Shown here piece after piece: positions 18,424 through 59,928 of a stretch of DNA of 64,000 bases. Numbering within the stretch: the stretch's first letter is position 1; the number at the start of each line of letters is the position of its first letter. The notes below the pieces were generated by a model. The model had not been told where the DNA came from. It ran no database searches and worked only from the letters and a program-made list of their open reading frames with translations. This DNA is from a virus. Made by a program: the position numbers and the translations under genes. Location of the stretch: IMG/VR virus record IMGVR_UViG_3300002835_000070, positions 1 through 64,000 of that record. One strand, 5' to 3'.

Positions 18424-18530
18424 TACATTTGTCAGGTAGTTGCCACTCGACAAAAAGTAACTTAAAAATTTTATGCTCTTACAATGAAGAACGAGGTCGA
18501 GTGCGTTTGGATTTGTAGGAGCATTTTTTG
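18424..18530 (+). promoter_or_regulatory. Promoter plus structured leader of the NUMOD4-HNH gene
   Basis: TACATTTG; crossing stems 18444-18451/18496-18503 and 18473-18483/18514-18524, then a T tract. Confidence 0.6.
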
Positions 18531-18543
18531 TAAAAAAAATATT

Positions 18544-19050
18544 ATGCAAGAAGTTTGGAAAGATATTAAAGATTTTGAGGGTTTTTATCAAGTTTCTAAT
18601 TTAGGGAATGTAAAAAGGTTGAAAGGAAAAGGTAGTGTTTCGGAAAGGTTATTGTGCCGTAAAATAGATAGGTATGGCTATGTAAAAAGGGTTTTATGTA
18701 GATATGGTAAATGTTTTTTCTTAACTGAACATAGATTAGTCGCTAACTCATTTATAGAAAATCCCGAAAATAAAGCAACAGTAAATCATATTAACGGAAT
18801 TAAGACTGACAATAGAGTAGAGAATTTAGAATGGAATACTCAATTAGAAAACAAACAAAACGCAGTCAATTCAGGTTTGACAAACTTAAAAGGTAATAAC
18901 CACCCAAGAAGTAAATTGACAGAAATTCAAGTTTTAGAAATTAAAGATGTTGGTTTGTCTAAAACAAAAACTTTTTTGTCTAAAAAATACGGTGTTTCAA
19001 GAATTACCATTTCAAGAATAATTAATAATGTAAATTGGAATCATATATAA
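18544..19050 (+). CDS. NUMOD4-HNH homing endonuclease
   Basis: EVWKDIKDFEGFYQVSNLGNVK, HRLVA..F, VNHINGIKTDNRVENLEW. Confidence 0.93.
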   Translation: MQEVWKDIKDFEGFYQVSNLGNVKRLKGKGSVSERLLCRKIDRYGYVKRVLCRYGKCFFLTEHRLVANSFIENPENKATVNHINGIKTDNRVENLEWNTQLENKQNAVNSGLTNLKGNNHPRSKLTEIQVLEIKDVGLSKTKTFLSKKYGVSRITISRIINNVNWNHI

Positions 19051-19418: not shown

Positions 19419-20663
19419 ATGTTTAAAGCTATGAAAAACAACCAATTAGATTATTCAGACTACTACGCAGACGGTGGTAAAGTTGACAAAGCAATTCCTC
19501 TTAACATAAGAAAACAAATCTACGATGCAGACGGAGAAAGAATAATTGACCCCGAAGCAATAGAAGTGCTTACTAACTACGCTGAAAATTTACCTCAAAC
19601 AAAAGACTTAAATACAAGCAAAACAACGGGAGAATATTATCCTGCAAGAAAAAAGCTACACGAAAAAATAATGGAATCTTTTAAAGAGGATTTGATTTGT
19701 ATTCAAAACGATGAGCCTATTGCTATTCTTATGGGTGGTTCTCCTGCAAGTGGGAAAAGTACATTTTTAAGAAAATACGCTCCTTACTTGTTAAAAGAAG
19801 AAATATTAAAAGTTGATGCTGACGAAATTAGAGCCAAACTACCTGAATACAAAGGTTGGAACGCTACTTCTACGCACCAAGAAACAAAAGATATTGTAAA
19901 TACACTTTTGAGTGACAGAACTATTGGTATTCCTTGTAAGTATGATATTATTTATGACGGAACTATGAATAGCACCAAGAGTTATTATCCACTAATTGCC
20001 CTATTGAAAAAATTGGGTTATAAAATATTTATCGTTTACATTGACAAAGTTGATGAGGCGGTAGTAAAAAAACGTGCTTTAGAAAGGTATAAAAAGAGTG
20101 GGCGATTTGTTCCTTTGGCGGTAATCGATGATTTCTTCACAAGGGGCAAAAGCGCACTTAATGAACTAAAAAGCAAAGCAGACGGGTATATGATTGTTGA
20201 CGGTTCAGGTGTAGATTATAATGTAATTGAGCGTGGAGGAATGAATTTACCTAAAAGACGTGCCTACTCAAAATTAGGTGTTCCAATTGCGGAATTAGAA
20301 AAACAACGTAAAATGGAATATGGCGGGAATACTTTTACTTTAAATGCTAAAAACCCAAAAAGTATTTCAGGAAGAAGCCTAACTCCACTACCTAAAATGA
20401 ATTACGGTTCTAATAGAAGTGTTTCAATGAGTGATAAGAAATTTGCTCAATGGTTATACGATAATGCTTTAGAAGAAGTAAAAGGCGATGATTATAGAAC
20501 GACTTTAGTTAAAGCGTTAAATCCAAGCAGACTTTCTCCTGCTGATTATGATTTCTTGAATTTGGTTCTTTTTGACCAAACCAATTGCAAGATAACCTAC
20601 GAAGACGGTGGTATTACCGAAAGTGGTACGCCTGACTATTTAGAAATGTTTTTAGGAAAATAG
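19419..20663 (+). CDS. Modular protein with a zeta-toxin-like P-loop kinase domain
   Basis: GGSPASGKST, DADEIR, IIYDGT; domain bounded by YYADGG and MEYGG; C-terminal YLEMFLGK. Confidence 0.88.
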   Translation: MFKAMKNNQLDYSDYYADGGKVDKAIPLNIRKQIYDADGERIIDPEAIEVLTNYAENLPQTKDLNTSKTTGEYYPARKKLHEKIMESFKEDLICIQNDEPIAILMGGSPASGKSTFLRKYAPYLLKEEILKVDADEIRAKLPEYKGWNATSTHQETKDIVNTLLSDRTIGIPCKYDIIYDGTMNSTKSYYPLIALLKKLGYKIFIVYIDKVDEAVVKKRALERYKKSGRFVPLAVIDDFFTRGKSALNELKSKADGYMIVDGSGVDYNVIERGGMNLPKRRAYSKLGVPIAELEKQRKMEYGGNTFTLNAKNPKSISGRSLTPLPKMNYGSNRSVSMSDKKFAQWLYDNALEEVKGDDYRTTLVKALNPSRLSPADYDFLNLVLFDQTNCKITYEDGGITESGTPDYLEMFLGK

Positions 20664-20667
20664 GTAT

Positions 20668-21585
20668 ATGAAAAATTTCGCCTTTATAATAGTAATTCAA
20701 AACATAAAAAATCCAAACTTAATTTTAAGTGGTGGGATTAAAAACAAGTATAAAGGTGCTTACAATAAAATTTTTGACATTTTAAATGAAGATTTTGTAT
20801 TTGTTGAATTTGGAAGCGAAGATGAAGAGTTAATTGGAAATGATTTTTATTTATATTTTAATCTCACTCCTGATTTAGAAAAATTACATAGAATAACTAA
20901 AATACCAAATGTGAAAATAATCAGTCAAACATATAGTCAAGGAGGGTTAATAGCACCTAACGGAAAGCCAAGCAATCTAAATGCTACGCAGTATGAATTA
21001 GTTCGTACAACTGACTTTAAAAAGTGGTTTGGGGATTGGGAAAACGACCCTGATAATGCGAGTAAAGTTGTTGACGATAATGGAGAGCCTTTAGTTGTTT
21101 ATCATAATTCTAATATAGAATTTAATGTATTTGAATTAAAAGGATTATCTGATGGTTTTTTCTTTACAAAAAACATTGAAGATGAAGAATTTTCACAAAA
21201 AGGGTGGTTAAAATCTGAAGGTTTAACATACGAACAAGCAATAAAAAAAGGTTATGATTTAAAATACGAAAAAGTAAAACCTTACTTTTTAAATATAAAA
21301 CAATTTTTTACAGAAAAAAATGTTAAAAAACAATTTTGGAGTACACCTTATTTTGAAAATAGGGTTATTGAGTTTTCAAAAAGAAATAAAAAAAATGATG
21401 GGGTTGAATTTTTACGAGAAATAGATAACAAGCAAATAATAGTTGCTTTTTATCCAAACCAAATTAAACTTGCTGACGGAACGAATACTAAATTTGATTC
21501 AAGTAGTGACGACATAAGATTTGAGCAAGGTGGCGAAAATAAAAGCGGTACGCCTAATTATTTAAGAATGTTTTTAGGAAAATAG
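20668..21585 (+). CDS. Polyvalent-protein-type ADP-ribosyltransferase-like module protein
   Basis: FKKWFGDWE...SKVVD.NGEPLVVYH...GFFF...FLNIK...AF.PNQIK; C-terminal YLRMFLGK. Confidence 0.75.
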   Translation: MKNFAFIIVIQNIKNPNLILSGGIKNKYKGAYNKIFDILNEDFVFVEFGSEDEELIGNDFYLYFNLTPDLEKLHRITKIPNVKIISQTYSQGGLIAPNGKPSNLNATQYELVRTTDFKKWFGDWENDPDNASKVVDDNGEPLVVYHNSNIEFNVFELKGLSDGFFFTKNIEDEEFSQKGWLKSEGLTYEQAIKKGYDLKYEKVKPYFLNIKQFFTEKNVKKQFWSTPYFENRVIEFSKRNKKNDGVEFLREIDNKQIIVAFYPNQIKLADGTNTKFDSSSDDIRFEQGGENKSGTPNYLRMFLGK

Positions 21586-21589
21586 GAAT

Positions 21590-23884
21590 ATGAAAAACGA
21601 GTTATTAGCACCTAACGGAAAGCCAAGCAATCTAAATGCAACCCAATACAAATTGGTTCGCACACCTGCGTTTAAAAATTGGTTTGGGGATTGGGAAAAC
21701 GACCCTGCTAATTCGAGTAAAGTTGTTGATGAGAACGGAGAGCCTTTGGTTGTTTATCATAGGACTAAAACAAAGTTTTATGAGTTTAATTCAGGTTCAA
21801 ATCTTATTGGGTGGTTAGGCAGAGGTTTTTATTTTTCTCCAAACAAAAACGAATTTAAGGAATACGGAAGAAGCGTTTTGAGTTGTTTTTTAAACATAAA
21901 AAATTTATTTGTATCTAAAGGCGAAGATGATGGATATTTGTTTAGCGAAGTTAAATCAATGAATAAAAGTAATGTTTTCAATGAAATAGATATTTCTCAA
22001 ACATTAAAAGAAAATGGCTATAATGGCGTTTTATTAAAACATTGGGATAGAGGTGTTATAATCAATTGTTTTGAGCCAAACCAAATAAAACTTGCTGACG
22101 GAACTAATACAGAATTTGATTCGAGCAGTAATGATATTAGATTTGATATGGGTGGTACTATTTTATTAGCACCTAATGGAAAACGAAGCAATCTAAATGC
22201 CGAGCAATATAAATTGGTTCGCACTCCTGCGTTTAAAAAATGGTTTGGAGATTGGGAAAACGACCCTGCTAATGCGAGTAAAGTAGTTGACAGAAATGGA
22301 GAACCTTTGGTTGTATATCACGGAACAAATACCGATTTTACAATATTCAGTTTAGAAAAAGTTGGGTCAAATGTAGATTATGGAATGTGGGGAAGTGGAT
22401 TTTACTTTTCTCCTTTGAGGTCATTTAGCAAAAATTATGGTAGTAGGTTATTAAAATTATTTTTAAATATTAGAAATCCATTTGTAAAGAATCCAAACAT
22501 TCAAGGAAGTAAGTCACAATTCAAGCCTGTTTACGGCAAGGAAGCATCTCTTAATTTAAGAAATGAAATATTGTCATATAATTATGACGGGGTTTTACAA
22601 TTTGAATCAGGAGAGAAAAACCCGCTTACTCAAATTATTGCATTTGAGCCAAACCAAATAAAACTTGCTGACGGAACTAATTTAACTTTTGATTCGGAGA
22701 ATGACGACATAAGATTTGAGCGAGGCGGGGAATTAAAAGCAGAAGATATGTTAAAGCACCCTTTGACAATCAAAAGATTACAAGACCTTGACGATAATGA
22801 TGGGTATTGGGTTAATCAGTATCACGCCAAAACAAAGAACTATAAACCAAATACCTATTACCATTTAAACACAAATAGTGGTCTTAATGCAGGTGTTGGA
22901 AAAGGCTTGTATCTTGGTAGAGATAAAGATGCTTTAATTTCATTTTATGATTTAGAGGGCGAAAATAAAACAGTAGATACTTATGTCGGAAATCCAAATT
23001 GGTTCGATTTAATGGACTATGCCGATTATGACCGATATGAACAAGAAGCGATTAGAAAATATGGTAAAAACTATGTTTCAAAAAACTCTATTTCTGATAT
23101 AGACATTAGAGGCGAAATGTTGAGAAAACTTGCTATTGAAAAAGGGTTTGACGGAATAAGATATTATGACCCTCAAGCAACAGGCGAAGAGTTTGTTTTG
23201 TTTGACGTAAAAAAGGTAAAAAAAATTGATGACGATTTTAGATTCAAAAATGGTGGTCGTACAGTAGCACAAACACCCGCACCGAAGAAAGACCGTGTGT
23301 ATGGAAGCGATTTGAACAAAAATAATTCTTCAAAAAGCGTATCAAGCGCAAAAATGATTAAATTTGACGAAAATACGCTTGAAGCTATAAAAAATAAAGT
23401 TCAAACACATAATGAGCAATACCCTGATAAAAAAATAAATTTGTCAAGTGCTAAAGCAGTTGTCCGTAGAGGAATGGGTGCTTATTCAAGTTCGCATAGA
23501 CCAACTATTTCAGGTGGAAAACCAAATAGTAGAGTTGCTTGGGGATTGGCAAGATTAAACGCCTTTACATACAAAATTGTAAACGGTAAAAGCAAGTCAG
23601 GAAAATACAGTCAAGATGATGATTTGATTGAAGAATTAGGGTTTAAGGTTGCTGATTATAAAAATGGTGGAGAAATGAGTAAAGATATAAGATGTATCAA
23701 CTGCGGTTGGGAATGGGATAGAAAAGATTCAGAATTATGGGATATGTACGTTTGTCATAAATGCGGTTTTGACAACACATCGTTTTACACTTCTGACCCA
23801 ATTAATCAGTTGTTAAAAGGTGGTAGATTAAATTCAAATAAAGGAGTTAATCCTGAATATTTAAAAATGTTTTTAGGCAAATAG
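21590..23884 (+). CDS. Modular polyvalent protein: 2-3 ART-like modules, DUF5824-like module, Zn finger
   Basis: Two APNGK.SNL...FK.WFGDWE...PNQIK repeats; RRGMGAYSSSHRP...WGLARLNAF; CINC/CHKC; modules separated by FxxGG. Confidence 0.75.
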   Translation: MKNELLAPNGKPSNLNATQYKLVRTPAFKNWFGDWENDPANSSKVVDENGEPLVVYHRTKTKFYEFNSGSNLIGWLGRGFYFSPNKNEFKEYGRSVLSCFLNIKNLFVSKGEDDGYLFSEVKSMNKSNVFNEIDISQTLKENGYNGVLLKHWDRGVIINCFEPNQIKLADGTNTEFDSSSNDIRFDMGGTILLAPNGKRSNLNAEQYKLVRTPAFKKWFGDWENDPANASKVVDRNGEPLVVYHGTNTDFTIFSLEKVGSNVDYGMWGSGFYFSPLRSFSKNYGSRLLKLFLNIRNPFVKNPNIQGSKSQFKPVYGKEASLNLRNEILSYNYDGVLQFESGEKNPLTQIIAFEPNQIKLADGTNLTFDSENDDIRFERGGELKAEDMLKHPLTIKRLQDLDDNDGYWVNQYHAKTKNYKPNTYYHLNTNSGLNAGVGKGLYLGRDKDALISFYDLEGENKTVDTYVGNPNWFDLMDYADYDRYEQEAIRKYGKNYVSKNSISDIDIRGEMLRKLAIEKGFDGIRYYDPQATGEEFVLFDVKKVKKIDDDFRFKNGGRTVAQTPAPKKDRVYGSDLNKNNSSKSVSSAKMIKFDENTLEAIKNKVQTHNEQYPDKKINLSSAKAVVRRGMGAYSSSHRPTISGGKPNSRVAWGLARLNAFTYKIVNGKSKSGKYSQDDDLIEELGFKVADYKNGGEMSKDIRCINCGWEWDRKDSELWDMYVCHKCGFDNTSFYTSDPINQLLKGGRLNSNKGVNPEYLKMFLGK

Positions 23885-23918: not shown

Positions 23919-26900
23919 ATGAAAAAAGGTAATATAGAGTTAACTCAAGAAGATGCAGAAAATACACCTGCGGGTGGAGTTGTAGTTGGTAAAAGAGATG
24001 GTCAAACTATGATTTATGACGATGCTTCTCTTGGCGGATATTTTGTGGGTAAACTACATAAAGACGGTGGAATTAAAATGATTAATAAGTCAACGGGTCA
24101 GCCTCTTGAGGTACAAGGAAGTGAAATAATTATTACCGCTCCTGCCGTTAATGACCAAACAAAACGTGAATTTGAGGGTAAGATGATGACTAATCGTGAA
24201 ATACTTTCAAAGATTAATTCAGACGGTGGTGGGGTTTCGTTTGCTGATGGTGGCGATATTCCTGCTAAAATTCACACTACTGATAAAGAGTATGAGTATG
24301 GAGGTAAAATGGTTCACGATTCGGACATAGCACATTCATTAGGTATGAATTCTACTTTGAAAAAAGGAAAGCAACATTTTTCTTCAGGAGATACAACTTA
24401 TGACGTAGATGCTATTTACAATGCTATTAAAAAAGGTAAACTTCGTTTAAAAACAAAAGAGGTTGAAACTTTTGCTATGAAGTACCCTGTGTACGACAAA
24501 AAATATAGCGAAACCGTTAAAACTGATTTCCGAAAACCAAACGGAATAATGGTTCGCTTGGAAAATGGCGAAGAAGTTCTGATTGACGGTAATCATAGAA
24601 TGAACAATGCCTACTTAAAAGGCAAGAAAACTATAAAAACTTATTACATCGAAGACCCAAAACAAATCGCCAAGTTTACCAAAAAGAATAAATTTGAGTT
24701 AGGTGGCGAAAATAAAGTTGGAGGTCATTTATCAAAAAACAAATCATTGAAGCAAATTGCAGAAATGCACAACGTTTCTTTGGCTCACATCAACGAAGAA
24801 ATTGCTAAAGGATTGGAAGTAGAGAAAGAACACTTTGCTGACTTCAAAGAGCGCACAAGAGTTGCTAAAGACCATTTAGTTGAAAATCCTAACTATTATA
24901 CTATTCTTGCTAAAGTAGGTCTAAAAGACGGTGGACATTTAAGACATCACAGACATAGTGATAATTTAGTTAAAGACGCTAAAAGCGGAAATACACCTGC
25001 GAGAGATTTGAACAACTACAATGACTTGTTAGATGTTCAGGCTGACGGTGCGGTTGGTGGGGATAGTGGTATTTACGCCAATGGCGGTGTAACGCCTTAT
25101 GATGCGAACCAAGAGGGAGATTCTGTTGATGTTGTTGAAGATGAATTCGCAAAAGGCGGAGTGGTTTACGATACAACAAAACCAACAGTTGATAAAATTA
25201 CGATTAGAGAAACTAAATATGATGGAGGTTCAAATTTATATTCAGGTTTAAGGGAAAATATTGTCGGAAAAGAAGCGACCAATATTTCTTATTTTATAAA
25301 TTTAATTAAAGATTATGTTGGACAAAACCCAATAGAAGAAACAGATTGGATTAGTTTCTATGTTAATGACGGAAAAAGAGGTAATTATTATATAGACTTA
25401 AATAAAGACAAGAAAAATACAGTTAAAAATGTTAATCCAAAAACGGGTGGTGGTAATGACATAAAAAGAGTCATTGATGCTAAAACGTATTTAGTTAAAA
25501 ACTATGATTGGACTGAATTTTTTGGAGGTCAAAGAACCAAAAAAGATAATTCAGTAATAAGAATATCAGTTAGCTATGATAGTAAAAATATATCAAATTC
25601 AAGTAATCTAAAATTGACTAATAATACTCTTGAACTTTATAATTTTTTAAGAGGTTTACACATTGGGGATTATGAAAATATAAAGTTACAACCGATTGGA
25701 AATGCTTTAGGTGTTGACCCTATTGAAGTTAATTTAAGCACATTTAGTTGGGACAATCTTTTAATGATGTCGCCCCAAGAAACTGCGGTAAAAGAAATAA
25801 ATAGAATTTTGTATGGGCTTTTCCCTAATTTGAATTTCGATAAATTTGTTAAAAGCGAACCTAATTCAAATGCTTCAAAAGAACTTGATTTAACAGACAC
25901 TAAAGTTTGGATTGGAGATGACCCTAAACTTTCTGAAGAAATTCAGAAAGCGGTATTTAGTCTTGGTTGGACTTGGAGTGGACGTAAAGAGGTAAAATTT
26001 ACTGATGCGAAATATTTGATTTTTAATTCGGGGAAATTTATTGGGTACAGAGCAAGTGGTACAAGAAATGATTTCGATTCAAATACAAGTAAAGAATTAA
26101 ACCCTCAAGATATTTTGTTGGCTAAAAAACCAACTATTACAACTACTCAATCACAATATCCTGAATATTATGAGTTTGTAGATGATACTCGTAATAGTTT
26201 TACTAAAGGTAAAATTTATAAAGTTAGAAACCCAAAAGATATTGAAGCGGGGGAAAATTTCATAGATGATAACGGTATTACAAACGGTTTTAGCGGTAAT
26301 AATGCCAAATATTTCAAACCGTCAACAGAACAAGCGTTTTTAGCGCAACAATCGGGTACTTCAGCTTCGGCTAAATCTTTTGATTTTACTGATACCAAAA
26401 TAGATGTTAAAAACAATCCTGCGTTATCAATAAGAGTTCAGAAACAAGCCTTTGAAAATGGTTGGGAATGGGAGAGTGGAAAAGGAAAAAATATTGATTT
26501 AGACCCTTTTAATTATTTGTACTTTACAAAGAAAAGTATTTCAGAGGGTAGTGGTATAAGTAGCTTTAATAATAGCCCTAAAAGAGAAATAACCGAAGAG
26601 GAAATATTCGGAGGTCAAAAAAACGTTTTGGCTCAAACGCAATATCCTGAATATTATGAGTTTATAGAAAATTTTTTTAGCAATAGTTTTACTAAAGGCA
26701 AAATTTATAAAATTAAAAACCCAAAAGACTTACACGCATCTAATAATTTTGTTAATGATTCAGGTCTGCCTGACGGCTATGGTACTTTAAATGACAAATA
26801 TTTTAAACCGTCAACAGAAGAGGCGTTTTTAGCGCAACAGAATGATGATAAGATAACTAAATTTAACGTAGTTGTAGAGAATAGTAGTTATCCCGATATT

Positions 26901-28964
26901 GAAGTAAATAATGTTTTGGAATTGTTCTCTGCTTTACAAACAAGAGTAGGTTGGGATTCTACAATTCTTTTAAAATATAAAACTCCAAAAGGGGAAAGTA
27001 AAAAATTTGGTCTTTATTTTAGAAACAATCCTGATGAGTATTACGAATTAAAAAGAGAAAACGGTAAATTAGATTTTGACGTAAATTATCTTTCTAATAA
27101 AGTAAAAGAATGGTTTCCAAATGAAGTTTCGGATAAGTTCTTTAAAAACGCACTTACTACTTCTAATATAGATAAAGAAATAACTTCGGTAGATTTAAGT
27201 TATGAAGTAAATGGAAATCCTACATATTATAGTGGTTTAACTACGGGAAAAGACTTTATAGAAGCAATAAACAACGTTGAACAATACAATCCAAATCAAG
27301 ATGTTGAAGTAAGATTTAGTTTCAATTACAAAGAACAAAATATTACAGGTGGTTTTTCGAGAGAATCATCAGTAAGATACTTTACATTTGGAAAGGGTGC
27401 TTTTAAACCAAGCAATTGGACTGTTTCTGAAATTAAATCAATTGTTCAAGATGATTGGCTTGATAATGAATATGATTTTGATAAATTTTTCAGCGATATT
27501 GTGTCTGTGGGTTCAACCAAAGGTTCTAATTTAGCACCTTACGAAGCGTCAAAAGTTATTCTTGAATGGAAAAATAAATTAGGAATACTTGTTTATAGAA
27601 TTTTTATTACTGAAAATTTATTATCGGGACAAGAATTTATAGATGAATTAAAAAGTATAGAAAAAGAATTAGGTGTTAATGATGTTGAAGTTAAAATAAC
27701 TGCCTATGCTAAAGATAGTAAAGGAAATGAATTTGATAGAATAACGGAATTTACGATTGGAGAAAATTGGTTTCAACCAAGCACAAGAACAAATGAGCAA
27801 ATAAAATCAATTGTTGAAAACGAATGGATTGACGGAATCAATTTTGATAAATTTTTTCAAGAAGCGCAAACGCCTACTTCAAATTCTGTCGTACCAAAAA
27901 CTGCTAACGATGAGAAATTTACAGATTTTAAAGAAGTAGTTGGTAAATTAGAGGGTTTTGCTTCAAAAGCATCAGAAAAGTACAATACTAAAAAATACGA
28001 AGAAAGTTTAGAATTATTAAACGAAGTTAAAGATGATTACGCTCTTGCTTTAAGTTTTACTCCTGAAAGTTCTTTTATGTACGAGCGTATTGAATTGATG
28101 AAAAAAATAGCAGAAGTTCAAAAGGAAATCACGAGAATTACCGAACTTAAAAGCGGTGGTGCTTACTATATTTTATCTAAAGTTATTGAACGATTAGAAA
28201 AAGGCGAAGATTGGAAAGAATCAGGTAGAGGCGAAATAGTGACAAATGAAGTTCCGCAACAAGAAATAGATTCTGTTATTCATACAGAGAAGTTTAAAAA
28301 TTGGTTTGGAAATTGGGAAAAAGCATTAATTACAAAAGAATACGACTATGTTAGTAAAGCTATAACAGAAATCGGAAAGCCTTGTGTAATGTATCACGGT
28401 GCTAAACGTATCAAGTTTTCTTATAGACAAGTTAGTAATGGGGTTTTATATTTGGCTGAAAATAGAAGCTATGCTGAATGGTTTAGTGCAAACGAAAGTC
28501 CATATCAGAAACAAGGGGATTATTTAACGCAATGTTTCGTGAATATTAAAAACCCAATTGACTTAACGCCTCTTGGTGTAGAAGAATTGGATTTAAGAGA
28601 TATAATTCAGTTTATCGACTCTTCATATCCCCTTGCTAAAATATACGATGTTTTAGACCCTCGTATATCTATGGCAATTATGAATAACAATTTAATTGGT
28701 TTAAATGTAAGGGCTTGGAATATTATAAGACAATATCCTGAATTTAACTCTCACATTAGAGATAATACAACTTATGACGGATTCATTTATTATGAGAATA
28801 ACCCATCTGACAAAATAATTAATGAAATCACAGGGGAATTAGAAGATAAAGTAACAAAAGCAACTGCCGTGTTTAATTCAAATCAAGTAAAATTGGTAGA
28901 TGCTATGTTGTTTGATTCGTCATTAGACGATTGGAGATTTGAAACGGGAGGAAAAGTAAATTAA
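23919..28964 (+). CDS. Giant polyvalent protein (ParB-like, DUF5661-like, internal repeats, C-terminal ART-like module)
   Basis: LIDGNHR; KGLEVEKEH...AKDHLVENPNYY; duplicated QYPEYYEF...SFTKGKIYK...YFKPSTE; FKNWFGNWE...MYHG. Confidence 0.75.
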   Translation: MKKGNIELTQEDAENTPAGGVVVGKRDGQTMIYDDASLGGYFVGKLHKDGGIKMINKSTGQPLEVQGSEIIITAPAVNDQTKREFEGKMMTNREILSKINSDGGGVSFADGGDIPAKIHTTDKEYEYGGKMVHDSDIAHSLGMNSTLKKGKQHFSSGDTTYDVDAIYNAIKKGKLRLKTKEVETFAMKYPVYDKKYSETVKTDFRKPNGIMVRLENGEEVLIDGNHRMNNAYLKGKKTIKTYYIEDPKQIAKFTKKNKFELGGENKVGGHLSKNKSLKQIAEMHNVSLAHINEEIAKGLEVEKEHFADFKERTRVAKDHLVENPNYYTILAKVGLKDGGHLRHHRHSDNLVKDAKSGNTPARDLNNYNDLLDVQADGAVGGDSGIYANGGVTPYDANQEGDSVDVVEDEFAKGGVVYDTTKPTVDKITIRETKYDGGSNLYSGLRENIVGKEATNISYFINLIKDYVGQNPIEETDWISFYVNDGKRGNYYIDLNKDKKNTVKNVNPKTGGGNDIKRVIDAKTYLVKNYDWTEFFGGQRTKKDNSVIRISVSYDSKNISNSSNLKLTNNTLELYNFLRGLHIGDYENIKLQPIGNALGVDPIEVNLSTFSWDNLLMMSPQETAVKEINRILYGLFPNLNFDKFVKSEPNSNASKELDLTDTKVWIGDDPKLSEEIQKAVFSLGWTWSGRKEVKFTDAKYLIFNSGKFIGYRASGTRNDFDSNTSKELNPQDILLAKKPTITTTQSQYPEYYEFVDDTRNSFTKGKIYKVRNPKDIEAGENFIDDNGITNGFSGNNAKYFKPSTEQAFLAQQSGTSASAKSFDFTDTKIDVKNNPALSIRVQKQAFENGWEWESGKGKNIDLDPFNYLYFTKKSISEGSGISSFNNSPKREITEEEIFGGQKNVLAQTQYPEYYEFIENFFSNSFTKGKIYKIKNPKDLHASNNFVNDSGLPDGYGTLNDKYFKPSTEEAFLAQQNDDKITKFNVVVENSSYPDIEVNNVLELFSALQTRVGWDSTILLKYKTPKGESKKFGLYFRNNPDEYYELKRENGKLDFDVNYLSNKVKEWFPNEVSDKFFKNALTTSNIDKEITSVDLSYEVNGNPTYYSGLTTGKDFIEAINNVEQYNPNQDVEVRFSFNYKEQNITGGFSRESSVRYFTFGKGAFKPSNWTVSEIKSIVQDDWLDNEYDFDKFFSDIVSVGSTKGSNLAPYEASKVILEWKNKLGILVYRIFITENLLSGQEFIDELKSIEKELGVNDVEVKITAYAKDSKGNEFDRITEFTIGENWFQPSTRTNEQIKSIVENEWIDGINFDKFFQEAQTPTSNSVVPKTANDEKFTDFKEVVGKLEGFASKASEKYNTKKYEESLELLNEVKDDYALALSFTPESSFMYERIELMKKIAEVQKEITRITELKSGGAYYILSKVIERLEKGEDWKESGRGEIVTNEVPQQEIDSVIHTEKFKNWFGNWEKALITKEYDYVSKAITEIGKPCVMYHGAKRIKFSYRQVSNGVLYLAENRSYAEWFSANESPYQKQGDYLTQCFVNIKNPIDLTPLGVEELDLRDIIQFIDSSYPLAKIYDVLDPRISMAIMNNNLIGLNVRAWNIIRQYPEFNSHIRDNTTYDGFIYYENNPSDKIINEITGELEDKVTKATAVFNSNQVKLVDAMLFDSSLDDWRFETGGKVN

Positions 28965-28972
28965 TAAAAAAA

Positions 28973-30732
<1,760 letters not shown>

Positions 30733-30733
<1 letters not shown>

Positions 30734-32145
30734 TGGAAGATAATACAAAAGAGATAGAAAAATTTCAAAGAATTATAGACAATTTCCCTGCTGATTCAAC
30801 TGCGGTTAAAGTTGCAAAAGAAAAATTAGCGCAAATTCAAGAACGTAAAAAAGTTGAAGTTGACAAAGATTTTTCGGGAGTAGTAACGTCAATTAATACA
30901 TTGATAGACAAGGTGTACAATACATCGGCAAATACTTCAAGTAGAGATATTGATAATGCTATCAACGAGAGGTTGAAGAAGATGAAAATTAACGAAAATA
31001 ATTTATCTCCTGAACTTAAAAAGTTGATTGGCGAAACAAAAACTATTGAGGTAAAAGTCAATAATGTAAAAACGTTTAGCGGAAAAACAGGCGAAGACCG
31101 TAGATTGATTGATGTTTTGTTATCTGATTACGAAGCCCAAAACAACGTGTATTTATACGGAGAAGCGGGAACTGGTAAAACATTTGTCGCAGGTATTATC
31201 GCTGATAGAATCAACTACAAGCTAATTACTTTAAACTGTAATCAATATACTTCTCCGTTAGATATTTTAGGAGGACAAACAATTGACGGTTATCAAGAGG
31301 GTAGGCTTACTGAAGCGTGGGGCAACATTGAATTAGGTTTAAATGCTAAAAACGAACCTTACGAGGGTGCTTTATTGCTTTTAGACGAGTTACCTAAAAT
31401 CGACCCTAATACGGCAGGTTTATTAAATGACGGTTTAGCGAAAATTAAAGATGCCGTTAAAGTTGTTGAATTGGCTAATAAAACTACAATAGAAGTTCAG
31501 CCAACAATATCAAATGGTAGAGGACAAAGGATACCAAGAGCAAAGATTTTTATCATTGCAACAGGTAACTCTTTGCTTAATGAGGCGAACAAAGATTACG
31601 AAGCGAATTTCAAACAGGATTTATCTTTACAAGACCGTTTCGCAGGAAGTTGTTACAAAATTACTTATAACTACAAATTTGAGTACGATAAAATAATGAC
31701 TAATATATCATCGGAAAGTTTCCCTGACGGAACTGTGATTGATATGACTTTTGCATTTAACTTCTTGGCTCAATTGCGTCAGCAAATTGTAGAAGATAGA
31801 TTAACGGGAATTGCTTTCGTTTCAACTCGTTTGATGATTGTAGCAAGAGATACGTTTGTTGCTTTTCTTGTAAATAGAGAAGAAACTCCGAACAAAATAC
31901 CAAGACCTAAAAAATTAAGTGAGGTTGTGAAATCATTCTTGGCTTTATTCTCTGAACAACAAAGAGAAAGTCTAATTCAAAAGTTAGATAGTCAGTTCAA
32001 AGAATTTTACGCTATTTGCGAAGTTAAAGACGTTACGCCTTTAGACCAATTAGGTACTTCGACAGAATTAGAGAGAAAAACTGCGGAACTAATAATCGAG
32101 GAAGCAGAAAGAAAATATGCTGAAAATAGTGCAATCCCTTTATAA
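30733..32145 (+). CDS. MoxR/CbbQ/CobS-type AAA+ ATPase
   Basis: Walker A GEAGTGKT, Walker B LLLLDE, IATGN, QDLSLQDRF. Confidence 0.88.
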
Positions 32146-32148
32146 AAA

Positions 32149-33738
32149 ATGATAAACGCAAGTCTTGCAAGACAATTAGAGATTTACTTTTACAACTCCC
32201 AAAGGGATTTGCTAAAAGAAGTTGAGGATTATTGGTTAAATAATCCGTCAGAGTATGACCCTATTGTTCAAAGACCCGATACTTCGGATGACTACATTAG
32301 AAGCAATCCTGAATTTTATGGGTATGACCCTAATAGTAATAAAACACTTCAGGAACAATTCTCTTATGATGAAGTTAAGATTTTTAGCGATATGCCTTTA
32401 TTGGAAAGTGCTTTAAATGGATTTTCTGACATTAAAAGAACATTAGATTTAGGAGGGGATTTCGATTCAGCAAGAATGAAATTTACGTCTTTGCCAAAAG
32501 GTGTATTCAATTTCGGTATAGCTTCAAAAGGGCTATACAGAAAAGTTGAATATTTTGACGAAACTCACGGTATAGTAATAGATAGTAACCTTGTTTTGCA
32601 AAGTGAAATTGACAACACGCCTTATTATAATTTCAAAGGTAATAGATTGTATTTAAGAAAGCAACAAGAGGGAACTTCTTTAATTGAAAAGCATTGTGAG
32701 GGCGTAAAGGTTAAATATTCAGATGCTAATATGTTATACTTGCCCTTTAAAGACGGTAAAATTTACAATGGTTGTGGATTTGAAGTTAATAAGGAAAAAG
32801 GAATTTTCGCTAAATTAAAATATGCCACAACTACAAAAAAGGTTTTTTCTTATAGAGAAAAATTAGGTGGTGGAATTTCCCCTTTTGTGGATTTATTTGT
32901 TGTGGTCGGTGGGCTTGGAACATTAGAAACAGAAGCTATGTTGGCTAAAAATTTACCAACATTTATCGTTGCTGATATTTTAGAAAAAGCAGGGGTTAAA
33001 GTAAGGATTTACGGTGTTAGGTCATATTCTAAAGATGATAAAATAGTTTTTTTACCATTTGCTTTAAAAGAATATGGAGAAACAATTGATTTTGGAAGCC
33101 TTGCTTCTTTTACTTCTGATGTTAGATTTTTTAGAGTAAATCTTTGGAGAAGTACGGCAACAATTAGAAGAATGGCTGAAAAAGCTAAAAACCCAAGAAG
33201 TTCAAGCTATCCTAAAGGAATGGGAACTACACTTTATGGGTATAATAACAATGTTCGAGATGAGTTATATGATGTTTTTCAAATGTATAAAAATTGGGTT
33301 TTTAATAATAAAGGCTCTGTAAAAAATACAACTAAAATAAACGATAAAGGATTGATGATTCTTGGAGGGTTAAGAAATATTCAAAATTCTGATAAACTAA
33401 CAGGAAGAAATCAGGCTCAAACATTTGCGAAAATAAAAGAAGAGGTTTATAGAATGTTAGATTATGTTGGTATGTTGTTAACAACTAATCCATCAAAATT
33501 TATTCAGGGAATTTACAATAGAGAAAAAGATAGCCCTAAATATGCTAATTATTCTATACCACAAAGAAAGCAAGAAATGACAAGATATTTATCAGGTCTT
33601 ATTAGAGATAATTTACAAGTCGTTCCTGATTTAAACGACCCGAATTTAAAGGTTTACGAAACACCTAAAGACGAGGTTTTAAGAATTGAAGAACGAACAA
33701 AAGACTTGATAAAAGCAATCGAAAAAACATTGAGTTAG
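32149..33738 (+). CDS. Putative VWA-like partner of the MoxR ATPase
   Basis: Directly follows the AAA+ gene; VADILEKAGVKVRIY...LKEYGE...FFR pattern; canonical MIDAS DxSxS not evident. Confidence 0.5.
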   Translation: MINASLARQLEIYFYNSQRDLLKEVEDYWLNNPSEYDPIVQRPDTSDDYIRSNPEFYGYDPNSNKTLQEQFSYDEVKIFSDMPLLESALNGFSDIKRTLDLGGDFDSARMKFTSLPKGVFNFGIASKGLYRKVEYFDETHGIVIDSNLVLQSEIDNTPYYNFKGNRLYLRKQQEGTSLIEKHCEGVKVKYSDANMLYLPFKDGKIYNGCGFEVNKEKGIFAKLKYATTTKKVFSYREKLGGGISPFVDLFVVVGGLGTLETEAMLAKNLPTFIVADILEKAGVKVRIYGVRSYSKDDKIVFLPFALKEYGETIDFGSLASFTSDVRFFRVNLWRSTATIRRMAEKAKNPRSSSYPKGMGTTLYGYNNNVRDELYDVFQMYKNWVFNNKGSVKNTTKINDKGLMILGGLRNIQNSDKLTGRNQAQTFAKIKEEVYRMLDYVGMLLTTNPSKFIQGIYNREKDSPKYANYSIPQRKQEMTRYLSGLIRDNLQVVPDLNDPNLKVYETPKDEVLRIEERTKDLIKAIEKTLS

Positions 33739-46431: not shown

Positions 46432-47130
46432 ATGGGAAAGTACACGACAGTTGCGATTAAAGTGCCTGATATTAATAGAAGTTTTGCACAATCAAATTAT
46501 AAATACTCTAACCCCGATGTTATAAGAGTTAACAATTTACTTATAGATGAAATCAATAAGTCATTTGGAAGCTATGTTACAAAGTGGGGAATTGAATTTG
46601 AAATTGATGATTCAATAATTATAGGTTTTATTGCTACCGAAAGTGGCGGTATTAATTCTCCTCCGAATAAATATGATGCGACAGGTCTTATGCAGATGAC
46701 TCCAAACACAGTTTGGGAAATTTTGGCAAAATGGCAAGTTATGGTCAATTCCCCGCTATCTACTAAAGCAAAATCTTTTTTCAATAAAGCGATTCCGTCA
46801 AGTAAAAATTTCAACGCTAATGTACTTCCGAGTTCGGCAGTAAAAAGCGAAATACGCAAAGCATTACAAAATAATCCTGAATTCAATATAGCAATTGGTA
46901 CTGCTAATTTAAGATGGCTTTTAGAAGCATTTAAAGAGGGCAACGTTGCGAGTATGAATAAAGTTATGGTTTCCTACAATGCGGGTTACTATGCTATGAG
47001 AAATAAGGTAAAAGGTGCTTTAACAACTCAACAATTAATCAATAATAAATCTATTCCTTTGGAAAGCAGAGGTTATTTATTAAAAATGTTAGGCGTAAAC
47101 GGTTTTTTAGACCTATGGTTTAAAAAGTAA
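46432..47130 (+). CDS. Lytic transglycosylase (SLT family)
   Basis: IATESGG, ATGLMQM, SYNAG motifs. Confidence 0.9.
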   Translation: MGKYTTVAIKVPDINRSFAQSNYKYSNPDVIRVNNLLIDEINKSFGSYVTKWGIEFEIDDSIIIGFIATESGGINSPPNKYDATGLMQMTPNTVWEILAKWQVMVNSPLSTKAKSFFNKAIPSSKNFNANVLPSSAVKSEIRKALQNNPEFNIAIGTANLRWLLEAFKEGNVASMNKVMVSYNAGYYAMRNKVKGALTTQQLINNKSIPLESRGYLLKMLGVNGFLDLWFKK

Positions 47131-55678: not shown

Positions 55679-56503
55679 ATGGAAGAAAGAGAACCGAAAT
55701 TATTAGTTGCAGTTGGACGTAAAGGGTGCGGTAAAACTTTTTCAACAAGAAAAATGCTTACAAGTTATGTTCAAGGCAATATTTCAAAAGGTATTGCCCC
55801 AAGAAGAGTTTTAATATTTGATGTAAATGATGAGTTTGAGGACATAAAAGCATTGGCTTTAAAAGATGTGGCTTTATTTTCTATGCACCCAAAAATAGAG
55901 ATAAGAAGAATTAGACCATTCAACAAGGACGGAAGACCTATGGGTATTAATGAAATGCAAGAAACATTATTTAAAATAGTTAATAATTTTAGAGGAGGAA
56001 TGCTTTTGTTAGAGGATTTAAACGGTTACGTTGGGGATTATATCCCACAGGATTTAATAGGTAAAATAGTAAGAGCAAGACACGCAGATTTGGACATAAT
56101 TACGCATTTTCAATCAATAGGAAGAATATCGCCTAAAATTTGGCAGAACGTCAACGCTATTCGTTTTCACAAAAATACAGATTCAGTTTTAAAACATTCC
56201 AAGAAATTTGATAATTTTTCAGAAATGTTTTTATTAGTGGAGGCTTATGTAAATTCCGAGTATCATTTAGGAAATGAAAGAATACAAGTTTGGGTTGATA
56301 CAGAAAACGAAAAAATTAAAATACCAAAAGAAAATATAGCTAAATTTGAAAAAATTGTAGAATTGTACTTAATGGAAAACCATAAAAGAATACTTTCCCC
56401 TTTATTAAATAAAAATATTTTCTTTAAAAATAATAAACCATTAACAATGCAAGAAGTTTTAAAAATAAAAAAAGCAGAAATGTTAAAATATTATTTAGAT
56501 TAA
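55679..56503 (+). CDS. A32/P9-like FtsK-HerA genome packaging ATPase
   Basis: Walker A GRKGCGKT, LIFD, Walker B LLLED, arginine-finger motif RARH, then hhhxQ. Confidence 0.78.
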   Translation: MEEREPKLLVAVGRKGCGKTFSTRKMLTSYVQGNISKGIAPRRVLIFDVNDEFEDIKALALKDVALFSMHPKIEIRRIRPFNKDGRPMGINEMQETLFKIVNNFRGGMLLLEDLNGYVGDYIPQDLIGKIVRARHADLDIITHFQSIGRISPKIWQNVNAIRFHKNTDSVLKHSKKFDNFSEMFLLVEAYVNSEYHLGNERIQVWVDTENEKIKIPKENIAKFEKIVELYLMENHKRILSPLLNKNIFFKNNKPLTMQEVLKIKKAEMLKYYLD

Positions 56504-59232: not shown

Positions 59233-59928
59233 ATGTCAAACGTAAGAAGATATTTAAGCAATGCACGTCAAAGTGCAATGGAATCTTTCTCAAATGCTGA
59301 CGGATTCATCGACCAAGACCTGTCATTCACAGGAGATGATTTCTTTAGAGCAGACGGAGGAATGGGGCAACAAGATATTCAAACATCTCAACCCTACATT
59401 ATCAACGTTACTTCTACATCAGGAGCAGCGATTGCTAACTTTGCTATATTAGGTTCATACCAATATATCAATAACACAGGATTCGTTAACGGTTCGTTAA
59501 CAATCGGTCCAGTGACTGTGAGTTCAGGTATTCCTGACATCACTTACCAAGAAATGTTATACCAATTTATGAATAATCCTTATTCTGTTGGTTTAACTTA
59601 CATCCAATCGGCTACTACTAACCAAGTTCTACAAACTTTGTCAGTAAACACGAGAGATGCGAATGGTAACTTGGCACAAAAAACTTTAGTGCCTACAATT
59701 GACCCATATCAGCAACAAACGAATATCGTTGCAATGAAGTATGCTTACCGTATTGATGGTTTCACAAAAATCATCATTGCTCAAATTTTAGCAACTGCTA
59801 CATTGTCATTATACTTCTATCCTGCTGATAACATCAACCTTGCAAGAGCATTGGGTGGTCAACCTGTAAGCAGACAATTCGGAACACCTCCTGTAACTAA
59901 TGGACAAACCATCAAGTTAAGAGCGTAA
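59233..59928 (+). CDS. Candidate major capsid protein (single vertical jelly-roll-like)
   Basis: About 150-aa beta-strand-rich core; apparent enrichment in TTC/ATC/AAC codons; own terminator; near the A32-like ATPase and among TM proteins. The fold is inferred. Confidence 0.7.
   Translation: MSNVRRYLSNARQSAMESFSNADGFIDQDLSFTGDDFFRADGGMGQQDIQTSQPYIINVTSTSGAAIANFAILGSYQYINNTGFVNGSLTIGPVTVSSGIPDITYQEMLYQFMNNPYSVGLTYIQSATTNQVLQTLSVNTRDANGNLAQKTLVPTIDPYQQQTNIVAMKYAYRIDGFTKIIIAQILATATLSLYFYPADNINLARALGGQPVSRQFGTPPVTNGQTIKLRA

Follow-up and report, generated by a model that had tools for sequence, protein, structure and literature searches.

To our knowledge, how injected effector and polyvalent proteins enter the virus particle is understood for only a few tailed phages. 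The protease of phage HK97 carries a C-terminal propeptide for capsid targeting. In phage T4, the internal proteins IPI-III and the ADP-ribosyltransferase (ART) Alt, which are co-injected with the DNA, bear a capsid-targeting sequence that is removable and transplantable (PMC7411985, PMC9024508), and a C-terminal propeptide has been proposed to target the prohead protease of phage SPN3US (PMC7411985). Encapsulins recruit cargo through C-terminal cargo-loading peptides of about 10 amino acids, which suffice to address the cargo and are absent when it is fused to the shell protein (PMC7355545). MinD, with its membrane-targeting sequence, and FtsA bind membranes weakly and reversibly by means of a short, transplantable, hydrophobic or basic C-terminal helix on a flexible tether (PMC8155659). 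For polyvalent proteins, packaging and injection have been predicted (Iyer, Burroughs, Anand, de Souza, Aravind 2017, PMC5512222); a term search of that paper found neither linkers or glycine motifs nor any passage on tags at the ends of solo modules or on a rule for split versus fused ones. Here we describe a short C-terminal peptide shared by consecutive effector genes in bases 1-64000 (hereafter the window) of IMG/VR record IMGVR_UViG_3300002835_000070 (102,228 bp), from an uncultured, freshwater, Bacteroidota-infecting virus of about 100 kb. Three consecutive open reading frames (ORFs 1-3) share the ending GG, 6 or 9 residues, P-[DNE]-Y-L-x-M-F-L-G-K, stop, which we refer to as the tag and which is a real, conserved and portable C-terminal signal. 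The locus contains the following features.

19419..20663, + strand: ORF1, 414 aa; zeta-toxin/AAA_33 kinase module, an extra module of about 96 aa, tag
20607..20660, + strand: tag 1, GG-ITESGT-PDYLEMFLGK (preceded by YED); stop at 20661-20663
20625..20675, + strand: junction cassette 1; tag codons, stop, 4-nt spacer and the next gene's ATGAAAAA
20668..21585, + strand: ORF2, 305 aa; N-terminal module (MKNFAF...), ART-PolyVal, tag
21529..21582, + strand: tag 2, GG-ENKSGT-PNYLRMFLGK (preceded by FEQ); stop at 21583-21585
21547..21597, + strand: junction cassette 2; replaces the two-residue linker 'TI' of the equivalent ART-to-ART junction inside ORF3
21590..23884, + strand: ORF3, 764 aa; two ART-PolyVal modules, further modules, Zn ribbon, tag
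23819..23881, + strand: tag 3, GG-RLNSNKGVN-PEYLKMFLGK (preceded by LLK); stop at 23882-23884, with a 34-nt spacer before the giant gene
23919..28964, + strand: giant polyvalent protein 1, 1681 aa, untagged
18484..19050, + strand: NUMOD4 + HNH_3 homing-endonuclease gene, flanking the array

A first-pass annotation of the window had claimed that these three ORFs share a C-terminal tag, and the tag is present as described. The DNA word that it had pointed out at the three gene ends recurs as well: the 18-mer ATGTTTTTAGGNAAATAG occurs three times in the window (at 20646, 21568 and 23867, all on the + strand), as against a mean of 0.05 matches in 100 dinucleotide shuffles, none of which reached three. 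There are no further copies in the whole 102,228-bp record, and no ORF beyond ORFs 1-3 in the 102-kb genome has this ending. Pfam places Zeta_toxin on ORF1 (E 2e-24) and ART-PolyVal on ORF2 (1e-12) and ORF3 (2e-48). Zeta proteins stripped of the tag form a BLAST cluster of their own, in agreement with the suggestion that the zeta protein is otherwise unrelated to the other two. The annotation had also drawn attention to the stop codon common to the three genes. All three indeed use TAG, which ends 14 of the 102 ORFs of at least 100 aa in the genome; this proved incidental, however, because the junctions of relatives mostly carry TAA (54/59), and TAG is thus a feature of this genome that lies outside the signal.

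We examined the tag in homologs of ORF1, taken as the 120 best cluster representatives from a protein search. The tag is found on 79 of these 120 clusters, 59 of them with the form P-D-Y-L-[RKQ]-M-F-L-G-K (type A) and 20 with the form P-D-Y-L-K-F-L-[IL]-G, which is one residue shorter (type B); the rest are mostly fused multidomain or cut forms. Tagged zeta homologs reach down to about 63% identity, and the placement of the tag behind the last GG, noted originally for the three window proteins, holds among them as well (of the 79, 66 have a GG-to-P gap of 6 residues and 10 a gap of 5). P, Y, L, M, F, L and G are each retained by 58-59 of the 59 type-A clusters, whereas the linker of six residues is variable. 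Variation is likewise wide at the final one or two positions (K, R, E, Q, N, F, H or L; DL or NL), and one cluster has two extra residues beyond GK. A degenerate DNA pattern located the tag in three IMG/VR relatives (G001-G003) as well, in the same gene block and with two to three tagged genes each; a fourth relative (G004) carries the variant PDYVRLLFKW. In a metagenome scan, 26 true loci with 42 tags were recovered. One contig (L053) has seven tagged genes in a row.

The tag is also portable and strictly terminal. A profile built from 19 tag tails (A2; 32 positions) was searched against 1.84 billion (1.84e9) representatives and returned 115 matches, comprising 59 tagged clusters, all with the tag at the extreme C-terminus, and 56 others that match only through the module end 'DIRFxxGG' inside giant proteins. 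An internal tag was never found among these matches, and none of the proteins longer than about 1100 aa is tagged. Two internal look-alikes to a regular expression are without the GG context. At least 12 different modules precede the tag, including zeta, ART, two Zn-ribbon forms and several unnamed ones. The idea that the peptide is a signal common to unrelated effectors is therefore borne out, and recent duplication alone, a doubt raised with it, does not account for a tag present on 79 of 120 zeta-homolog clusters and on unrelated modules.

Whether a module bears the tag follows how it is encoded: separately encoded modules are tagged, and modules fused into the giant protein are not. Five tagged genomes were compared with an untagged one (G005, 101 kb). 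In G005 the zeta module lies inside a 1918-aa giant protein, followed by GG and a DUF5661 module; the tag is absent there, and no tag occurs anywhere in that genome. The same relationship is visible within the window, where the ART-to-ART junction inside ORF3 reads GG-TI-LLAPNGK and is untagged. The ORF2/ORF3 boundary is the same junction, with about 70 nt (tag, stop, 4 nt and Met-Lys-Asn-Glu) instead of 'TI'. In an alignment of the zeta proteins (A1), the 410-aa forms correspond to the 315-aa forms with a module inserted between 'KMExGG' and the tag; the extra module goes in between GG and tag, and the tag therefore remains terminal. Separately, a stand-alone 126-aa piece of the 'TPAPKKD...' module at 9551-9931 of contig L031, 5' of the zeta gene, is untagged. 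It is the only exception seen to the tagging of stand-alone modules and may be a decayed fragment.

The genomic context of the tagged genes is equally regular. They form arrays of one to seven genes directly upstream of the giant gene at no fewer than 13 loci (at least 13), in the order [HNH] zeta-tag, (module-tag)n, [HNH], giant gene, and no tagged gene lies away from the array in the five complete genomes. The ORF1-type zeta gene is usually the first of the array, the order of modules varies between genomes, and FLDL or FLNL is a frequent ending of the tagged gene nearest the giant gene. No examined locus combines type A with type B; G006, a type-B genome, has type B on both of its ART genes. 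The N-terminal 112 aa of giant protein 1 (A4; window 23919-24254), which follow directly on the array, are 69-94% identical across the seven genomes compared and rank among the best conserved segments of the virus. ESM Atlas pointed from this domain to crAss cargo protein 1 with a score of 0.90; the Pfam model failed to confirm the link, which was rejected. In relatives, genes with NUMOD4 and HNH_3 occupy one of two places, ahead of the first tagged gene or in the interval from the last one to the giant gene:

L022, 7364-7915: NUMOD4 + HNH_3 gene
L031, 10986-11525: NUMOD4 + HNH_3 gene
L092, 5449-5988, minus strand: NUMOD4 + HNH_3 gene

The conserved junction DNA may be where these homing endonucleases, from the array edges, bring about splitting or shuffling. 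In a genome scan, the same array (zeta-tag / tag / tag / HNH) turned up on the 132-kb contig JBBAJS010000009.1 (L092) of a Sediminibacterium sp. metagenome-assembled genome, which makes Sediminibacterium a lead as to the host. One tag of that array has Ser for the otherwise invariant Pro.

The level at which the tag is constrained can be read from its variation. Its codons vary synonymously (Gly as GGA, GGT, GGG or GGC; Pro as CCT, CCC or CCA), tagged junctions use either TAA or TAG, and the spacer from the tagged stop to the next ATG ranges from 1 to 34 nt, with all three frame relations occurring. The amino acids nevertheless stay invariant over homologs that are 63-96% identical. Since synonymous sites, stops and spacers vary while the residues do not, the constraint is on the peptide. 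RNA at the three window junctions folds no better than shuffles (z +0.34, +0.06 and -1.91). In an AlphaFold2 model of ORF1, residues 375-414 have pLDDT < 50 and are disordered, with a short helix at 406-411; this predicted tail would fit a tethered two-turn helix, albeit at low confidence. On a helical wheel, the hydrophobic residues of type A, type B and the G004 variant coincide in position.

Conservation, portability, terminal position, dependence on separate encoding, array architecture and peptide-level selection are thus all observed features of the tag. The explanation that we favor, and to which we give about an even chance, is that the tag is a docking or cargo peptide that gives split-off effector modules the delivery route of the giant protein. 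The last 16-21 residues would constitute a portable C-terminal address module, in which a Gly-Gly hinge is followed by some six residues of low conservation, then by Pro-Asp as the start of a helix, and lastly by two hydrophobic helical turns (Y-L-x-M-F-L) that would stop one or two residues short of the free C-terminus. This module would be added to effectors encoded as separate genes (zeta toxin, ADP-ribosyltransferases, Zn-ribbon and others), and its helix would dock each free module on one common viral partner, either a protein or an internal membrane. The free modules may then be assembled into the particle and reach the next host together with the giant polyvalent proteins, such that the tag would stand in for a covalent link by a non-covalent one; later removal at Gly-Gly is conceivable. 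Tentatively, we further suggest that the tag could be the cargo-loading code of a large, possibly tailless, membrane-containing virus, read by one virion component.

Several points weigh against a docking or cargo role. The comparison of the five tagged genomes with untagged G005 gave no gene that tracks the tag convincingly. The giant proteins themselves are never tagged, and another route of particle entry would therefore be needed for them. A fixed distance to the stop and a gene close behind it would likewise be compatible with a translational element. Amphipathicity by itself does not set the tag apart, as the hydrophobic moment of 0.35-0.45 is reached by 35-40% of shuffles. Finally, with regard to the particle type, neither Terminase_6N nor Pox_A32 was matched, and the coat-protein candidate was folded only with low confidence.

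Among the described systems, a close parallel is with the encapsulin cargo-loading peptides, which likewise combine a short conserved terminal peptide, a flexible and poorly conserved linker and unrelated cargo. By analogy only, the absence of the tag from fused cargo (the zeta module of G005 and the internal ART-to-ART junction) also corresponds. The tag sequence is unrelated to those peptides, however, and the tagged genes adjoin the giant polyvalent gene rather than a shell gene. The encapsulin peptide fits into a hydrophobic pocket in the interior of a shell with the HK97 fold; the putative shell protein of this virus is not demonstrably of that fold. The targeting sequences of T4 and of P1 DarB are also short peptides, T4 cargo also includes an ADP-ribosyltransferase, and the SPN3US and HK97 proteases illustrate that a targeting peptide can be C-terminal. 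In contrast to the T4 and P1 signals, which are N-terminal (the T4 propeptide has about 10-20 aa), the tag is C-terminal in 59 of 59 clusters and common to at least 12 module types. The T4 signal is cut by the prohead protease at a known site, whereas no prohead protease, terminase or portal was detected here. The cargo itself corresponds to the repertoire of polyvalent proteins, with ART-PolyVal, Zeta_toxin, LPD11, DUF2958 and DUF5661 modules. Like the MinD and FtsA sequences, the tag is predicted, at low confidence, to be a short C-terminal helix, which would suit a membrane-containing virion; unlike them, its residues are invariant and not merely hydrophobic, and its moment is not above that of shuffles. 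It also differs from the exosortase and rhombosortase signals (GlyGly-CTERM), in which secreted proteins carry a full transmembrane helix and a basic cluster, in that its hydrophobic run is only 5-6 residues. ORFs 1-3 have no N-terminal hydrophobic leader evident by eye, no signal-peptide predictor having been run. A literature search found 'MFLGK' in no relevant paper.

To search for a protein that could read the tag, we considered genes of the window and their distribution among relatives. The AAA_5/MoxR-like ATPase and its 529-aa neighbor (window 30733-33738) are 78-86% identical in G001 and G003 and 22-38% identical in G004 and G005, a drop far steeper than that of other core genes. These two AAA+ locus proteins, a protein with a GQ repeat and a 356-aa protein are all undetectable in the complete tagged genome G006, and none of the four is therefore likely to be the universal reader. 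The only genes present in all tagged genomes and missing from G005 encode small membrane or coiled-coil proteins. As these have positional counterparts in G005, the phyletic comparison is uninformative with respect to a reader. Complex prediction of the tag (A2) with the coat-protein candidate (A3) and with the N-terminal 112 aa of giant protein 1 (A4) scored 0.00, which gives no verdict and is evidence neither way. With regard to cleavage at Gly-Gly, the genome has no match to the protease families Peptidase_C48 (PF02902) or C5 (PF00770), the two families to which the search was limited.

The GQ-repeat protein (window 28973-30733) has 586 aa, with a (Gly-Gln / Gly-Glu)n repeat of about 250 residues between helical ends, and its length in relatives ranges from 448 to 586 aa; it could be a disordered scaffold. 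A Pfam match to TrAA12 and a 98-aa ORF in an alternate frame (29763-30059) appear to arise from the repeat itself. Transmembrane-like segments are present in 36 of 123 ORFs, and 31 of these ORFs lie within 45.7-77.5 kb, many with the segment C-terminal. This block surrounds a P-loop ATPase (55679-56503), with only weak HerA/DUF87 matches, and the very conserved 231-aa coat-protein candidate (59233-59928), and it would fit a membrane-containing particle. The weak Foldseek matches of the coat-protein candidate are mostly to jelly-roll capsid proteins (best E 0.0098). The tagged cargo genes lie about 35 kb from this candidate and are neighbors of the giant polyvalent gene. Within the same block, an ORF at 46432-47130 (232 aa) was considered as a further tag bearer and rejected, as its tag-like C-terminal words (YLLKMLG, FLDL) belong to a conserved SLT-like protein. 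That protein has a lytic-transglycosylase-like motif (ES..G...GLMQ) and is conserved in G001-G005; its resemblance to the tag is probably due to chance.

An alternative, which we regard as unlikely, is that a cytoplasmic host or viral factor (a protease, chaperone or inhibitor) reads the tag as a C-terminal degron or sequestration signal, limiting the activity or lifetime of toxic stand-alone effectors with no role in packaging. The cargo is indeed toxin-like (zeta toxin, ARTs), a free C-terminus at a fixed distance is needed, as for C-degrons, and the presence of one tag type per examined locus would also fit a single host-specific reader. Known C-degrons, however, depend on the last residues, which are those that vary widely in the tag. 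In addition, the same toxic modules do without such a handle when fused in giant proteins, and the strict tie to an array upstream of the giant gene would be left unexplained.

The tag could instead be of consequence as DNA, the block of about 51 nt that spans tag, stop and start acting as a splitter and shuffler spread by gene conversion or homing-endonuclease repair, with a nearly functionless peptide. Cassettes 1 and 2 are identical at 46 of 51 nt between unrelated genes, with flanks matching at 26/51 and 8/51, and the arrays are bordered by HNH homing-endonuclease genes. Genomes differ in module order, as shuffling at junctions predicts, and variants at the x position tend to group by locus. 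The 51-nt cassette is probably also a recombination site for module shuffling. As a sufficient explanation, we consider this improbable: the synonymous sites are free and the amino acids invariant, the stop codon and spacer length vary, and type B and the G004 variant swap residues yet retain the hydrophobic pattern. Recombination may spread the tag, but it would leave the purifying selection on the tag unexplained.

It also appears very improbable that the tag acts in translation, as a nascent peptide that would pause the ribosome at termination for re-initiation at the nearby ATG and so keep a polyprotein-like 1:1 ratio. Such a role would agree with conserved residues at a fixed distance from the stop and with a next gene that begins 1-12 nt behind every tagged gene, save one case of 34 nt. 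Conservation within the tag, however, is lowest in the residues adjoining the stop; type B falls one residue short, and one cluster has two residues past GK. Furthermore, the untagged giant gene has its next gene equally close (8 nt), and the junction RNAs, as noted above, lack significant structure. Finally, fusion of the ORFs into a polyprotein by a +1 frameshift, ribosome hop or read-through at ...GGA-AAA-TAG is suggested by each window ORF lying in the +1 frame of its predecessor (frames 0, +1, +2, 0 over the four ORFs from ORF1 to the giant gene) and by Lys AAA on either side of the ORF1/ORF2 and ORF2/ORF3 stops, but such recoding is largely refuted and almost certainly wrong, as the spacers of relatives are 1, 3, 4, 5, 6, 8 or 12 nt with no conserved frame relation, their stop is mostly TAA, and HNH genes can sit between the last tagged gene and the giant gene.

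The tag is a short and sharply defined candidate signal that can be put to the test, in a virus lineage that has not been studied, and the comparison of split, tagged modules with fused, untagged ones predicts what it replaces. If the tag is the cargo-loading code tentatively suggested above, such a virus could split its polyvalent proteins into separate, freely shuffled effector genes whose products would still be delivered with the genome, and the tag would extend such address codes for the first time beyond tailed phages and encapsulins. Were the tag sufficient on its own, it would be usable for loading chosen foreign proteins into particles, and the effector arsenals of related metagenomic viruses could be listed from sequence.

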